This document shows positions 3,103 to 47,347 of a stretch of 64,000 bases of DNA, piece after piece. The stretch's first letter is position 1. Every line of letters begins with the position of its first letter. Made by a program: the position numbers and the translations under genes. The DNA is taken from the sequence record PZ452595.1; one strand, 5' to 3'. Under the pieces are notes generated by a model that was given only the letters and a program-made list of their open reading frames with translations, ran no database searches and had not been told where the DNA came from. Source of the stretch: a phage.

Positions 3103-3338
3103 AGTACGCCATACACCCTTTGTGCTTCAACTAATCCATCAAAATCCAGTTTAAGATGCGATATTTGATCGCCATCACCTGGATTTACAATTACTAATAC
3201 TGAACGAGGAGTTTCGGTAATAACACGAACCGATGTTTCAGGAAATCGTTCAGAAACCTTATTTACCAATTCCTGTGCAAATAGCTTAACTTTTTCTTGG
3301 AATTCTTTAACAGTAATTGGTTTTTCACTTAGCAGCAT
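3099..3338 (-). CDS. hypothetical protein (cd.x block)
   Basis: 79 aa ORF, ATG start, overlaps neighbours by 4-10 nt. Confidence 0.5.
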   Translation of the reverse strand: MLLSEKPITVKEFQEKVKLFAQELVNKVSERFPETSVRVITETPRSVLVIVNPGDGDQISHLKLDFDGLVEAQRVYGVL

Positions 3339-3859
3339 GTTGATCCCAGCTCCTTACTTTCAACGTTTTTAACTAATTTGACAGAAACTAATTCAGCATC
3401 TTGAGTAATCATTACCGGACCTTCTTCATACTCTTCAAGATATTCTAGAGCTTTCTTTTTAGCTTCTTCCTTCGTATCAGTTTGAGCATAGATATAAAAC
3501 ATACAACCAGTAATACCTACTACTTTCCACTTAATTTCTTTATCAGCTTTAATTTCAAATTTACTGACAGAATCATCTTTTTGAACTTCTTCGAAAAAAG
3601 AATATTCTAACATATAAGCAATTGAAAATAACGGGCTAACTTTATAGGATTCGCCCATTACATCAACAGCTTTATACCAGCAGTCATCAATTTCGCGTTT
3701 AATGCTAATAACATTTTTCGCAGGATCTATTTTTACTTTAAATGAATTTTCCCCAATAAACTGGGCAATTCGTTTATTAGCCCCGCAAGTTTCATTAAAA
3801 ATATCTTTATATCCAGTTTTAAAGCGATAAACCTTATCTTCTTCAAACCATTCGCTCAT
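3329..3859 (-). CDS. hypothetical protein (cd.x block)
   Basis: 176 aa ORF, ATG start; early promoter 3890..3919 directly upstream. Confidence 0.6.
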   Translation of the reverse strand: MSEWFEEDKVYRFKTGYKDIFNETCGANKRIAQFIGENSFKVKIDPAKNVISIKREIDDCWYKAVDVMGESYKVSPLFSIAYMLEYSFFEEVQKDDSVSKFEIKADKEIKWKVVGITGCMFYIYAQTDTKEEAKKKALEYLEEYEEGPVMITQDAELVSVKLVKNVESKELGSTCC

Positions 3860-4400: not shown

Positions 4401-5808
<1,408 letters not shown>

Positions 5809-43696: not shown

Positions 43697-44122
43697 TTAT
43701 TCCTTAAAGTGTGCTTTCAGCATTTGATACAAGGACCATGCCTGTTCATTATTTTCAATAGTAACTTTCATGACTGGGAATTCTGTGAAATCTTCTATTT
43801 GATCTTGCTCTTTCTCTTCCTGCTCTTGCTCTTCAACTGCCTGATATGGATTTTCCACTTCATCAAAGAACCCAGCTTCGTTAGTAGAAAGCCAGATAAA
43901 GTTTTCGTCAAGGATATCACCATGTGTTGCATATCCAACTGTGCCAGTAGATGTCACAATTTTAGTAGGACGACCAAGATGGTCAACATCTAAAATTTTA
44001 AAAGGATGCATACCTAAACGGCGCGCATAGATTCCGTTATCAGTATGATCTTTAATAAAATTTTCTTGAGCTTGTTTATTTTTAAATTGATACCATTTAT
44101 TAACTTCAAATCTAATAGCCAT
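43697..44122 (-). CDS. hypothetical acidic protein
   Basis: 141 aa, ATG start; Glu-rich stretch [12 protein letters not shown]. Confidence 0.55.
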
Positions 44123-44340
44123 TAATAAATTTCCTTCCAGTAAGTTGTACCGTCTTCAGTGATTTCACGGAATACACCATAAATCGGTTGTTTATCACCA
44201 ACCTTTTCATACACATAAACCGAAGTCAAGTGAGTAAACTTGATGGTGTGTTCCTTTTGAACTACTACCAAATTTGGATCAAATAATACATCTTCAAATT
44301 CATCATTAGTGCAATTCTGAACAATTTTACGTTTCATCAT
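44122..44340 (-). CDS. hypothetical protein
   Basis: 72 aa, ATG start (MM). Confidence 0.5.
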
Positions 44341-44350
44341 AATTTCCTCA

Positions 44351-44620
44351 TTAATTGAACATTGGAGCGATGCGTTTCAGAAGAGTAGCAGCACCTTTGG
44401 CGAATTTTACATCATGAAAAACAGTTTCTTCTTCCGTTACAACACGAGCTTTAATGTTTTCGCAATCCCAATTTTTGCGAACAATCTTCAAAAGCTGCAA
44501 TAAATCTTTACATTCAGCAATATCGATAACATATCCACGAGAATCTTCCATTATCGCACGATAACCATAAGCCATACCATAATCATTGAAAGATTGCTCG
44601 ATGATAATTAAGTTTTCCAT
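44351..44620 (-). CDS. hypothetical protein
   Basis: ATG at 44620 preceded by GGAG (89 aa); track start is TTG. Confidence 0.5.
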   Translation of the reverse strand: MENLIIIEQSFNDYGMAYGYRAIMEDSRGYVIDIAECKDLLQLLKIVRKNWDCENIKARVVTEEETVFHDVKFAKGAATLLKRIAPMFN

Positions 44621-44663
44621 TTTATTCTCCAAGTTATTTTCTGTATCAGTAGTTGATATTGAT

Positions 44664-44692
44664 ATAGTACCATAATCAACTACTGATGTATA
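44664..44692 (-). promoter_or_regulatory. variant early promoter
   Basis: TGG-TACTAT extended -10 with a weak -35 (TATACA); -10 sits inside a 13-nt perfect inverted repeat ATCAGTAGTTGAT / ATCAACTACTGAT. Confidence 0.4.
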
Positions 44693-44717
44693 TAGTTTTA
44701 TGAAAAAATTTTAAACT

Positions 44718-45209
44718 TTATGCATAGCGAGCTTTGCTGTAGTGTTTAATCCAACTTTCAGGAATGACTTTGTATGTTCCTAAAAATACCGCGTTGTATA
44801 ACTTAACGCCATCTTCTACCCATTGATCAGTAATGTATGCACACATGGCGCGAGTACGGTTAACAACCCCTTCCTCACCTTCAGTAAATTCAAACTCATA
44901 AGGAGCAACGAACTTAATAGCTTGACCGAGTTTCCACTTAAAGTCTACGCCTACATGCGAAGTATCAATCGTTTCAATTCCTTTAGCAGGAACAGCTTTT
45001 AAAAACGCAGACTCAAGAAATTTCGCACGAACATAGCCAAACTGAGGTTTAGACTTTCCATCTTTAGGAATGATACGCACTTTTACTTCAGAATCTTCAT
45101 CTTTAACACCGTGTTTAAGCTGAATGCTTACAACTTCAACCAATTTTCCTGCTGCTTTAGAACGGGATTTATCAGATACACGAGCAATTTCACCGATATT
45201 AATAATCAT
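44718..45209 (-). CDS. motB: MotB-like DNA-binding protein
   Basis: 163 aa, MIINIGEIARVSDKSRSKAAGK...; length and position between the cef-region ORFs and dexA match T4 MotB. Confidence 0.8.
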   Translation of the reverse strand: MIINIGEIARVSDKSRSKAAGKLVEVVSIQLKHGVKDEDSEVKVRIIPKDGKSKPQFGYVRAKFLESAFLKAVPAKGIETIDTSHVGVDFKWKLGQAIKFVAPYEFEFTEGEEGVVNRTRAMCAYITDQWVEDGVKLYNAVFLGTYKVIPESWIKHYSKARYA

Positions 45210-45253
45210 AGTTATCTCTCACTTGTTAAAAAGATTTTATACTCCACGGGACC

Positions 45254-45282
45254 ATTATACTCTGGTCCCAAGAGTTTGTAAA
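45254..45282 (-). promoter_or_regulatory. T4-type early promoter upstream of motB
   Basis: Minus sense GTTTACA, 17-nt spacer, TATAAT. Confidence 0.55.
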
Positions 45283-45285
45283 CTA

Positions 45286-45828
45286 TTAATTCAAAATAGC
45301 TACCACTGCACTACGAGGTACTACGCTAAAATCACCTGCATGAACAACGTTCAGAAGTTCAACACCATCTTCAATCCACTGGTCTGTTACCCAACCACAG
45401 ACCGAAATAAATGGGGTCTTGATAGCTACTGCACGAGTCAAAAGGTCAGTAGGATCAACTTCTTGGAAGAGGATAATCTCTGCTTCAAAGACTATAGTTT
45501 TAATTACTTCATCATTATCTAAGCGATGTGCTCGAATCACGTAAGCTTTATTCTTATCATACCAATTACTTTTTGAAAAACTTTTAACCACAAACTCACC
45601 TTCACCAAAAACACTGGTCAATGCTTTATAACCCAAATTTAGTTCAGTAGTTTTAATTTCAGTTTCAACCAGTTTGTAGGTTTTGCCAGTTTCGATGGTC
45701 CGAGCAGTCATAAATGTTTCCTTAATTTCTAATGGTTTAACAAGAGTGCCGTACATGCTTGCTATATCCATATCAAACGGTTTATCTACAGGATTCGGTG
45801 TGTATTCAGGATTATAATTAAATTTCAT
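45286..45828 (-). CDS. hypothetical protein with MotB-like C-terminal domain (motB.1 position)
   Basis: 180 aa; C-terminus GWVTDQWIEDGVELLNVVHAGDFSVVP aligns with MotB AYITDQWVEDGVKLYNAVFLGTYKVIP. Confidence 0.6.
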   Translation of the reverse strand: MKFNYNPEYTPNPVDKPFDMDIASMYGTLVKPLEIKETFMTARTIETGKTYKLVETEIKTTELNLGYKALTSVFGEGEFVVKSFSKSNWYDKNKAYVIRAHRLDNDEVIKTIVFEAEIILFQEVDPTDLLTRAVAIKTPFISVCGWVTDQWIEDGVELLNVVHAGDFSVVPRSAVVAILN

Positions 45829-45830
45829 AA

Positions 45831-46343
45831 TTATCTCATTTCAATAAAATCTACAAGTTCAGCATGGGATTTACGGAACATTACTTGATGCCCACCAATG
45901 ATAACTTGGTCATCTGGCACTTCATAAATCGCAATGTACATTCCACGATCTTTTAAGTCTTCACGCTCTTCTCGGGTGAACCATCTCATCATATCATATT
46001 CAGTAGCGAAAGCAAAATGATATAATGCAATAAACCACAATGGAATATAATTTTCAATTCGTGAATAATCTTTATTCCATTTAGTTTTAATAGCATCATT
46101 AGCATTTTCAACTAATAACTTATCATCGTGCGGAATAGGAATACTTTCATGACTTTCATAATTATCGCTATGATGATGAAATGACGATGAATTAATACCG
46201 CAAAATTTTAGCCAAGTTCGAGTTTTCATAGAATCAAATCCACGATAAGGAGTTGATTGAACGCATAACTCTTGCCTAATTTTCATTATACCACTATCAT
46301 CATTTAATGCGCTAAACGATGATTCAACACGATAAATTTTCAT
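45831..46343 (-). CDS. hypothetical protein
   Basis: ATG at 46343 preceded by GAGGA (170 aa); track start is TTG inside the promoter. Confidence 0.5.
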   Translation of the reverse strand: MKIYRVESSFSALNDDSGIMKIRQELCVQSTPYRGFDSMKTRTWLKFCGINSSSFHHHSDNYESHESIPIPHDDKLLVENANDAIKTKWNKDYSRIENYIPLWFIALYHFAFATEYDMMRWFTREEREDLKDRGMYIAIYEVPDDQVIIGGHQVMFRKSHAELVDFIEMR

Positions 46344-46370
46344 TTTATTATCCTCAGTAGCTATGGTGTT

Positions 46371-46399
46371 ATAATACCACAACTGACCGAGGAAGTAAA
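46371..46399 (-). promoter_or_regulatory. T4-type early promoter
   Basis: Minus sense GTTTACT, 17-nt spacer, TGG-TATTAT. Confidence 0.55.
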
Positions 46400-46406
46400 C
46401 AACTTT

Positions 46407-47090
46407 TTATCGTTTTGTTGGAAGAGACAGAGGATCGCATTCTTCCTCTGACGGAGCATCTTCAAGACCCATAGCGTATCGCAAAGCATACTTCATCATC
46501 AGGATGTCTTTCGCACAGTCATGAATAGAATCATGTGCAACGAATCCATCTAAGGTTCCCTTTGGAAGAGGACATGTGGTCATATCACGAACAAGCAGAA
46601 GTGCTTCAATTCTGGTACGAATATCACGCTGATTCCAGAATTTACACGGTTCTAACTTAAATGTGTCAAGCTCATTCTCAGAAACACCATTAAGACGTTG
46701 AATATCACGAATGAGATCGACTAAAATTGGAAAATCAAACGACATTCCGCGACACCAGCCTTGAGATTTCCAAGGATCGATATTATGTGCATTGATGTAA
46801 TCATTAAATTTTGTAATACCATCGATAGTGCTTACATCTTCATCTGATGGTGCAATATTTTTTCTAGCTTCAGGAGATTGATTTTTCCACCATTCGATAG
46901 TGCTTTTAGTAAAAAGACGATGTCCTTTTTGGCTTTTTAAATCAAATTTGATTTTAATGCCACGTGAAACTAATTCATCAAACGTTTCAACTACTTCTGG
47001 ATTAGGGTCAAAAGCAATTACAGCCAAATCAATAACAGCTGCTTTTTCACCGCTTCCCATTGTTTCAAAATCTATAATAAAATCAAACAT
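46407..47090 (-). CDS. dexA: exonuclease A (DEDDh 3'-5' exonuclease)
   Basis: 227 aa, MFDFIIDFETMG... with DEDD acidic motifs; same length as T4 DexA. Confidence 0.88.
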   Translation of the reverse strand: MFDFIIDFETMGSGEKAAVIDLAVIAFDPNPEVVETFDELVSRGIKIKFDLKSQKGHRLFTKSTIEWWKNQSPEARKNIAPSDEDVSTIDGITKFNDYINAHNIDPWKSQGWCRGMSFDFPILVDLIRDIQRLNGVSENELDTFKLEPCKFWNQRDIRTRIEALLLVRDMTTCPLPKGTLDGFVAHDSIHDCAKDILMMKYALRYAMGLEDAPSEEECDPLSLPTKR

Positions 47091-47347
47091 TAAATTTTCC
47101 TCGCTAAATCACGAATTTGATCTACAGTATAGTCTTGAATATAAACTTTATTGATAGGCTCATCAATAAATTTTGCCATAGATTCAATGTCTTTTTGTAT
47201 TTCTTCAAGACTGTATACTATCTTTAAAGCTTTTTCGCGAATAGTAATATTTTCAGGACCCTGATTTTCTTCAATGACAGCTTTAACATTTGTCATAAGA
47301 GATTTAAATTGGTACCAACTTAATTCAATCATTAATAATCGCCTCAT
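47090..47347 (-). CDS. hypothetical protein (dexA.1 position)
   Basis: 85 aa, ATG start overlapping the dexA stop region. Confidence 0.5.
   Translation of the reverse strand: MRRLLMIELSWYQFKSLMTNVKAVIEENQGPENITIREKALKIVYSLEEIQKDIESMAKFIDEPINKVYIQDYTVDQIRDLARKI

Follow-up and report, generated by a model that had tools for sequence, protein, structure and literature searches.

The early protein MotB of bacteriophage T4 binds DNA tightly and in a sequence-independent manner, irrespective of whether the DNA is modified or unmodified, and it copurifies with H-NS/StpA (PMC6070864; PMC7827196). It was furthermore shown that T4 MotB alters the footprint of H-NS, that it is toxic upon overexpression and that it doubles the burst size (PMC6070864; PMC7827196). 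Its N-terminal domain (NTD) was assigned to the KOW domains and its C-terminal domain (CTD), by HHpred, to the OB fold, with eIF5A as the analogue (Patterson-West et al., 2021; PMC7827196). The same study reported that the CTD of MotB resembles that of MotB.1 although the NTDs differ, considered a possible duplication and described four categories of CTD-bearing proteins, including a peptide of 29 amino acids (aa) in RB69 (Patterson-West et al., 2021; PMC7827196). The NTD of MotB.1 was described as an LSm-like fold common to GoF and Frd.2 (Kim et al., 2025; PMC12152347). Here, we analyzed the genes motB and motB.1 in a stretch of 64,000 nucleotides (nt) of phage DNA (sequence record PZ452595.1), which is called the window throughout. 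The core of the finding, i.e., a common CTD, differing NTDs and a possible duplication, was also noticed in an initial annotation of the window and is already known since 2021 (PMC7827196).

In the window, motB (44718..45209; minus strand, as all features of the window described here) encodes 163 aa plus a stop codon. The upstream open reading frame (ORF), a long form of motB.1 (45286..45828), encodes 180 aa plus a stop codon; the coordinates given for both in the initial annotation were correct. As in T4, motB.1 is located directly upstream of motB in the direction of transcription and downstream of motB.2. MotB belongs over its full length to the MotB family (Pfam PF17613, 333.4 bits, residues 1–163 versus model positions 1–162; PHROG 1671, E = 1.7e-76) and is 91% identical to T4 MotB, with which it shares position and orientation. 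It comprises 163 aa versus 162 aa in T4, and the hairpin insert of its CTD (residues 101–120) carries a few substitutions. MotB.1 matches PHROG 2333 at full length (258.4 bits, E = 1.3e-76, residues 1–180 versus model positions 1–210), aligns with T4 MotB.1 and has 232 relatives at E ≤ 0.001.

The similarity of the two proteins at their C-terminal ends is far beyond chance. BLASTP resulted in a single significant segment, in which 16 of 32 residues are identical and 24 of 32 positive (E = 3e-11), covering MotB residues 121–152 (AMCAYITDQWVEDGVKLYNAVFLGTYKVIPES; 44754..44849) and MotB.1 residues 142–173 (SVCGWVTDQWIEDGVELLNVVHAGDFSVVPRS; 45310..45405). The two peptides on which the initial annotation was based are located within this segment and were recovered exactly, AYITDQWVEDGVKLYNAVFLGTYKVIP as MotB 124–150 and GWVTDQWIEDGVELLNVVHAGDFSVVP as MotB.1 145–171. 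Moreover, the Pfam model of MotB (PF17613) reaches 34.2 bits on MotB.1, above its gathering cut-off of 25, with only the model positions 120–153 matching, so that MotB.1 is no full-length member of this family, and PHROG 1671 matches MotB.1 residues 116–178 (E = 4e-17). An alignment profile to profile with hhalign extends the similarity to 51 columns (MotB 93–157, MotB.1 129–178) with a probability of 98.3% and E = 1.1e-14. The homology is thus longer than the 30 C-terminal residues suggested initially; the motif itself is present in both proteins, but in MotB it does not form the extreme C-terminus, as 13 residues follow. The differing N-terminal regions were seen correctly, since hhalign aligns the CTDs only and yields no alignment of NTD to NTD, not even at the level of profiles. 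BLASTP, Pfam, PHROG, hhalign and the structural models described below agree on a CTD common to both proteins, and the match is significant both pairwise and by profile.

Family alignments of 31 MotB proteins (A5), 18 MotB.1 proteins (A6) and 13 divergent or 'hybrid' proteins (A7) show how the shared region is built. It begins with a segment resembling strand β1, which reads 'FKWxLGxGVxF' in MotB and 'DPTDLLxxAVxI' in MotB.1, followed by a variable hairpin insert and the invariant core [ST]-D-Q-W-x-E-D-G ... N-x-V ... P. The barrel occurs in two flavours, 'KLYNxVF' in MotB and 'DPTDLL...ELLNVVH' in MotB.1, and the CTD of the window's MotB.1 is of the latter flavour and closer to the MotB.1 family than to MotB (alignments A1 and A6; core identities). 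The hybrid group, in which an NTD of MotB type is combined with a CTD of MotB.1 type, connects both: its profile can be aligned to MotB across 142 columns (E = 6e-38) and to the CTD of MotB.1 at E = 7e-31. At the level of DNA, the shared stretches are 54% identical and their third codon positions match in 10 of 32 cases, which is about the rate expected at random and excludes a recent gene conversion. A scan of the 64-kb window in six frames with a hidden Markov model (HMM) and a regular expression found exactly two copies of the barrel and no third one.

Models predicted with AlphaFold2 (AF2) and analyzed with DSSP support this picture. The model of MotB (mean predicted local distance difference test, pLDDT, of 79.9) shows an N-terminal barrel of five strands at residues 8–67, a disordered linker (residues 69–83) and a C-terminal barrel with strands at 97–110, 115–132, 135–142, 145–150 and, after a 3-10 turn, 154–157 (block means of the pLDDT 81–95). 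The N-terminal KOW/SH3-like barrel (residues 1–67; 45009..45209) contains the conserved motif 'VxVSxxSRSKAAG', and the C-terminal barrel as delimited by AF2 and hhalign (residues 90–163; 44721..44942) comprises β1 'FKWKLGQAIKF', a long hairpin insert and the shared core. For MotB.1 (mean pLDDT 72.6), the model starts with a disordered leader (residues 1–42, pLDDT below 50). A β-α-β3 barrel follows at residues 45–124, with strands at 50–53, 79–86, 95–102, 108–114 and 121–124 and helices at 61–74 and 115–120; this N-terminal barrel (residues 43–124; 45457..45702) is unrelated in sequence to the NTD of MotB. The C-terminal barrel of MotB.1 (residues 125–180, DPTDLL...GWVTDQWIEDGVELLNVVHAGDFSVVPRSAVVAILN; 45289..45456), aligned to MotB by hhalign, has strands at 133–137, 142–153, 156–163, 166–171 and, again after a 3-10 turn, 175–179 (block means of the pLDDT 80–88). 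Both CTDs are hence predicted as five antiparallel strands in the same order with a 3-10 turn between β4 and β5, as in SH3-like barrels.

This predicted arrangement differs from the OB fold assigned earlier. Neither model has a helix between β3 and β4, which is typical of OB folds, and a cold-shock-like OB fold was therefore not retained; eIF5A, which shares with MotB the two barrels and the KOW-like N-terminal one and has an OB fold as its C-domain, does appear in the Foldseek lists, at low rank. We thus favour, with moderate confidence, a small β-barrel of SH3/Tudor-like type for the shared CTD, and MotB and MotB.1 are read from the models as tandem SH3-like small barrels of which the second is homologous. 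Comparison of both models with the PDB by Foldseek placed tandem Tudor domains (53BP1, UHRF1), Agenet domains and Spt5 KOW6–7 on top, with probabilities of about 1.0 and marginal E-values of 3–5e-3. The proteins 53BP1, UHRF1 (tandem Tudor domain), AGDP3 and Spt5 (KOW6–KOW7) likewise carry two five-stranded SH3-like barrels in tandem, but share no sequence similarity with the phage proteins (9–16% identity) and differ in the orientation of the domains (root mean square deviation 8–16 Å), making this a structural analogy only. Against BFVD, the model of MotB.1 retrieved relatives of MotB.1 and MotB and one phage protein with a KOW domain, and single-sequence and profile searches gave no match to a solved structure.

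An exhaustive search of 1.84 billion proteins with the CTD profile resulted in 32 representatives at E ≤ 0.001, of which 26 are short and represent small phage proteins of the MotB/MotB.1 type. The other six, long proteins with multiple matching stretches (immunoglobulin, PKD, carboxypeptidase-regulatory and leucine-rich repeat proteins), were considered as cellular relatives and judged spurious. By tblastn, the module was found in 781–850 phage records at about 1,700 places. T-even phages of Escherichia, Shigella and Yersinia carry it at two to three places per genome, and a single place per genome is present in the listed outgroup records (Kanagawavirus PEi20/26, Kosakonia 305, Enterobacter IME523 and ZX14, and Klebsiella KLB31 and Potts1).

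All outgroup loci examined hold one copy of the barrel. The gene order is dexA, motB.2, one motB-like gene, cef and goF in the corresponding slot of both PEi20 and PM2; Marfa has the same order, except that a small hypothetical gene stands where the others have motB.2. The single gene of PEi20, Marfa and PM2 encodes an NTD of the MotB-type KOW kind, a linker 'DTDVAHMY..PLVI' and a barrel of MotB.1 flavour. Single-copy 'MotB' proteins from other genera of T4-like phages (Kanagawavirus PEi20, Marfavirus Marfa, Mosugukvirus PM2, Kosakonia 305 and the Enterobacter/Klebsiella phages) resemble the window in the slot between dexA and cef, in the KOW-like NTD of the MotB kind and in the linker and barrel of the MotB.1 kind; they differ by the presence of one gene instead of two and by having no LSm-like barrel. 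PEi20 MotB and the MotB of the window are colinear (E = 2e-11), and the CTD of the PEi20 protein shares 68% identity with MotB.1 of the window over 57 aa (E = 3e-29). The linker preceding this CTD matches a leader motif of MotB.1 (residues 19–36, DMDIASMYGTLVKPLEIK; 45721..45774), located in the predicted disordered N-terminus and resembling the linker in front of the barrel in single-copy MotB; PEi20 MotB residues 76–92 (DTDVAHMYLTQIRPLVI) form a second BLASTP segment with this leader (E = 4e-4). The A7 HMM gives two matches on the MotB.1 ortholog of KMB42, one of them over the leader region. In two uncultured contigs (L008 and L009), dexA is followed by a single KOW gene with a barrel of MotB flavour.

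The core identities reveal how these genes relate to each other. Over the 33 aa of the barrel core, MotB.1 shares 85% identity with Marfa, 76% with PEi20 and 64% with PM2, but only 48% with the neighbouring MotB, and the barrel core of MotB is 64–67% identical to those of L008 and L009. For comparison, DexA of the window is 65–69% identical to DexA of PEi20, PM2 and Marfa and 59–62% to that of L008/L009.

MotB.1 of T4 (UniProt P39415; PHROG 2333; 'Category 2/4' of Patterson-West et al., 2021) occupies the same slot between motB.2 and motB and has a nearly identical C-terminal barrel (DPTDLL...GWVTDQWIEDGVELLNVVH...). It differs in that the 180-aa protein of the window carries a disordered leader of 42 residues bearing 'DMDIASMY...PLEIKE', which T4 MotB.1 does not have, and in that the N-terminal barrel of the window is only about 35% identical overall to that of T4. 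The position of this N-terminal barrel varies among the relatives: in the window it is found between the linker motif and 'DPTDLL', in the protein P0234 it is located before the motif, and in P0231 it is duplicated. This variable placement and copy number points to insertion or replacement of a domain. Compared with the GoF profile, the NTD of MotB.1 gives a colinear but weak match (probability 9%, E = 0.0036), and MotB gives none.

Taken together, the early genes motB and motB.1 encode products sharing one homologous CTD of about 55–70 residues with the [ST]-D-Q-W-x-E-D-G hairpin. We consider it probable that both genes descend from a single ancestral gene, that the barrel lineages split early, that the NTD of MotB.1 was replaced, and that the shared barrel acts as an interaction module. 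The order of events that we infer is the following. The ancestral gene would have encoded a KOW-like barrel, a linker and the shared barrel, and would persist in the slot between dexA and cef in other T4-like genera. Descent from one gene is supported, since the single gene of the outgroups is colinear with MotB and shares linker motif and CTD with MotB.1. Two lineages of the barrel would then have split before the pair of Tequatrovirus arose, because each core is closer to single-copy genes of other phages than to its neighbour, and would later have been kept, or brought, side by side. MotB would have retained the basic KOW-like N-terminal barrel. MotB.1 would have lost it and gained the β-α-β3 barrel, which in the window follows the old linker motif and precedes the C-terminal barrel; replacement rather than divergence of its N-terminus is indicated because the NTDs are different domains without a profile alignment. 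Either an ancient duplication with differential loss or the lateral acquisition of a diverged ortholog beside the resident gene may have resulted in the pair. The single-copy genes of MotB.1 and MotB flavour as evidence of old lineages and the replacement of the MotB.1 NTD are new details of this analysis. That the hybrids are deletion products of the pair was considered and judged unlikely, as such a deletion would join the NTD of MotB.1 to the CTD of MotB, which is the opposite of what was observed.

An alternative explanation is a shuffling of modules, in which the short C-terminal module alone, with or without the linker, was copied or recombined onto an unrelated protein of the GoF/Frd.2/LSm-like kind that existed before, so that the two genes would not be paralogs as wholes. 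The N-terminal barrel of the MotB.1 type is indeed modular: it is present singly or, as in P0231, in duplicate, and it lies on either side of the 'DxDxAxMY' motif (P0234 versus the window). Moreover, remnants of fusions such as P0246, described below, exist, a 29-aa peptide of RB69 has been published (PMC7827196), and the GoF that the MotB.1 NTD weakly matches is encoded three genes downstream. However, in the MotB.1 of the window the inserted barrel is still preceded by the linker motif of the single-copy proteins, so that an insertion into a MotB-like gene is easier to envisage than the fusion of a bare CTD, and the slot that MotB.1 occupies is syntenic with that of the single gene. We therefore regard such a transfer as quite unlikely.

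Very unlikely is also the simplest form of the tandem duplication that the initial annotation proposed, namely a recent duplication of motB within Tequatrovirus followed by divergence through point substitutions, faster in the N-terminal half. It would account for two adjacent genes on the same strand with a significant C-terminal match, and for the presence of one gene in the outgroup genera where the phage of the window has two. However, a recent origin is at odds with a MotB.1 core whose identity is 76–85% to its single-copy counterparts in Kanagawavirus and Marfavirus but 48% to its neighbour, with a MotB core that shares 64–67% identity with the single-copy genes found in more distant uncultured phages, with third codon positions near the random rate, and with N-terminal halves that are different domains, the barrel of MotB.1 splitting motifs that are contiguous in the single-copy proteins. 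The proposal is right in outline but oversimplified: common descent from one ancestral gene is retained, and a simple and recent duplication with divergence is disfavoured. Finally, the notion of a short convergent or chance motif or of a recent gene conversion in place of an ancient domain ancestry, to which the 32 residues of the pairwise BLASTP match might lend themselves, is hardly credible given E-values of 3e-11 pairwise, 1e-14 by profile over 51 columns and 7e-31 via bridging sequences, the same predicted strand pattern in both CTDs, a DNA identity of 54% with nearly random third positions, and the rarity of a profile with 32 representatives in 1.84 billion proteins, the 26 short ones being of the MotB/MotB.1 type.

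As to the function of the shared domain, which we likewise infer, DNA binding and copurification with H-NS/StpA are assumed for the MotB of the window from its 91% identity to the T4 protein. At its invariant positions, the barrel carries acidic or aromatic residues. Considering the domain charges of the window's own MotB and MotB.1, MotB is basic (pI 9.2) with its charge residing in the NTD (net +5, pI 9.8) and a CTD that is near neutral (+1), and MotB.1 is acidic overall (pI 4.9) with an acidic C-terminal barrel (net −4, pI 4.3). Because of these acidic and aromatic invariant residues, the acidic barrel of MotB.1 and the location of the positive charge in the NTD of MotB, the shared barrel would be a common module for interaction or self-association and not the main surface contacting DNA, and the KOW-like barrel of MotB would carry most of the DNA contacts. 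A further proposal, speculative and rather unlikely as it stands, is that the barrel is a docking or hetero-association module through which the acidic MotB.1 competes or pairs with the basic, DNA-coating MotB for a common partner, which may be the respective other protein, H-NS/StpA or a further host factor. In this case, MotB and MotB.1 would be a pair of regulator and effector rather than redundant paralogs, and the reported lack of a phenotype for T4 'MotB.1' could partly reflect the use of the 119-aa form described in the following.

The T4 reference sequence contains an additional G in motB.1. NC_000866.4/AF158101.6 reads GGATTGGAAGATGG, whereas the window, KMB42 and independent T4 sequences read GGATTGAAGATGG. 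The region concerned (3222–3320 and 3292–3651 of the T4 locus extracted from NC_000866.4, L002) corresponds to 45289–45405 in the window. Due to the additional G, the annotated T4 MotB.1 ends at 119 aa ('...TDQWIGRWR'), midway through the shared barrel, so that two thirds of the core are missing; the remaining part of the domain, EDGVELLNVVHAGEYSVVPRSAVVAILN, is intact in the next frame. At least 13 other records of T4 or near-identical phages do not have the additional G and comprise 557 nt versus 558 nt over the stretch. In resequenced strains, MotB.1 has a length of 143 aa: MT984581 annotates this form with the full domain, and KJ477684 carries no annotation of the gene. The functional study of 2025 reports a MotB.1 of 13.8 kDa without reference to a frameshift or truncation (PMC12152347); it apparently used the 119-aa form. 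As the additional G truncates the reference MotB.1 within the shared domain, experiments that started from the reference ORF may have been carried out with an incomplete protein.

Between the stop codon of motB.1 and the start of motB, a promoter-like site of the sigma-70 type is present (TTTACA-17-TATAAT, matching the consensus at 11 of 12 positions; 45254..45282, minus strand), which is identified as a consensus match only. The stretch is identical in T4. A near-consensus promoter of early type between the genes suggests that motB may have a transcription of its own besides read-through. A perfect inverted repeat of 7 bp (GGGACCA...TGGTCCC; 45248–45269) spans the −10 hexamer of this site and could form a hairpin in the read-through RNA of motB.1 or act as an operator-like element.

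The window is DNA of a Tequatrovirus, i.e., a T4-like phage. The surrounding region (44000–47200) is 92–98% identical to many Tequatrovirus genomes, and the genes on the minus strand are arranged in the order dexA (46407–47090), a motB.2-like ORF (45831–46382), the 180-aa ORF (motB.1), motB, a 93-aa ORF (44351–44632), cef and goF (43697–44122). The order dexA, motB.2-like gene, motB.1 and motB is the same as in T4 and KMB42. Among the loci of this analysis, that of contig L008 (Logan SRR24146912; 1260–2687), from an uncultured T4-like phage, is the most compact, as dexA is directly followed by a single motB and then by cef, and both motB.1 and motB.2 are absent. The 93-aa ORF between motB and cef belongs to PHROG 3720, to which PHROG assigns no function; its equivalent is a gap of 170 bp without annotation in the T4 reference and is annotated as a hypothetical protein in KMB42. 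The motB.2-like ORF was called from a TTG, and its true start is likely the ATG 13 codons further in (MKIYRVESSF..., at about 46343), because this start fits the gene lengths in T4 and KMB42 and the N-terminus of P0246. The latter, a metagenomic protein of 43 aa, joins the N-terminus of MotB.2 (MKIYRVESSFS) to the 29 C-terminal residues of MotB.1. This protein is the product of a deletion that removed most of motB.2 and motB.1 and recalls the 29-aa peptide of RB69. GoF has a length of 225–255 aa in the outgroups (goF at 4735–5502 of locus L005 from PEi20, 4662–5384 of L006 from Marfa and 4727–5404 of L007 from PM2) versus 141 aa in the window. The additional segment resembles a second motif of the N-terminal barrel, suggesting that the small barrel may be duplicated within GoF.

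Several names without support have spread in related records. MotB.1 and MotB.2 are widely called 'transcriptional regulator', one record of MotB.1 is labelled 'putative adenylribosylating enzyme', KMB42 labels motB.1 as 'motB.-1', and RefSeq names dexA.2 of T4 'dextranase'.

As a summary, the pair of motB and motB.1 occurs in hundreds of sequenced T-even phages, and the core finding of a shared CTD adds nothing new to what was published. Of use for work on the early proteins of T4 are the SH3/Tudor-like reading of the shared domain, the old lineages of the barrel and the truncation in the T4 reference.

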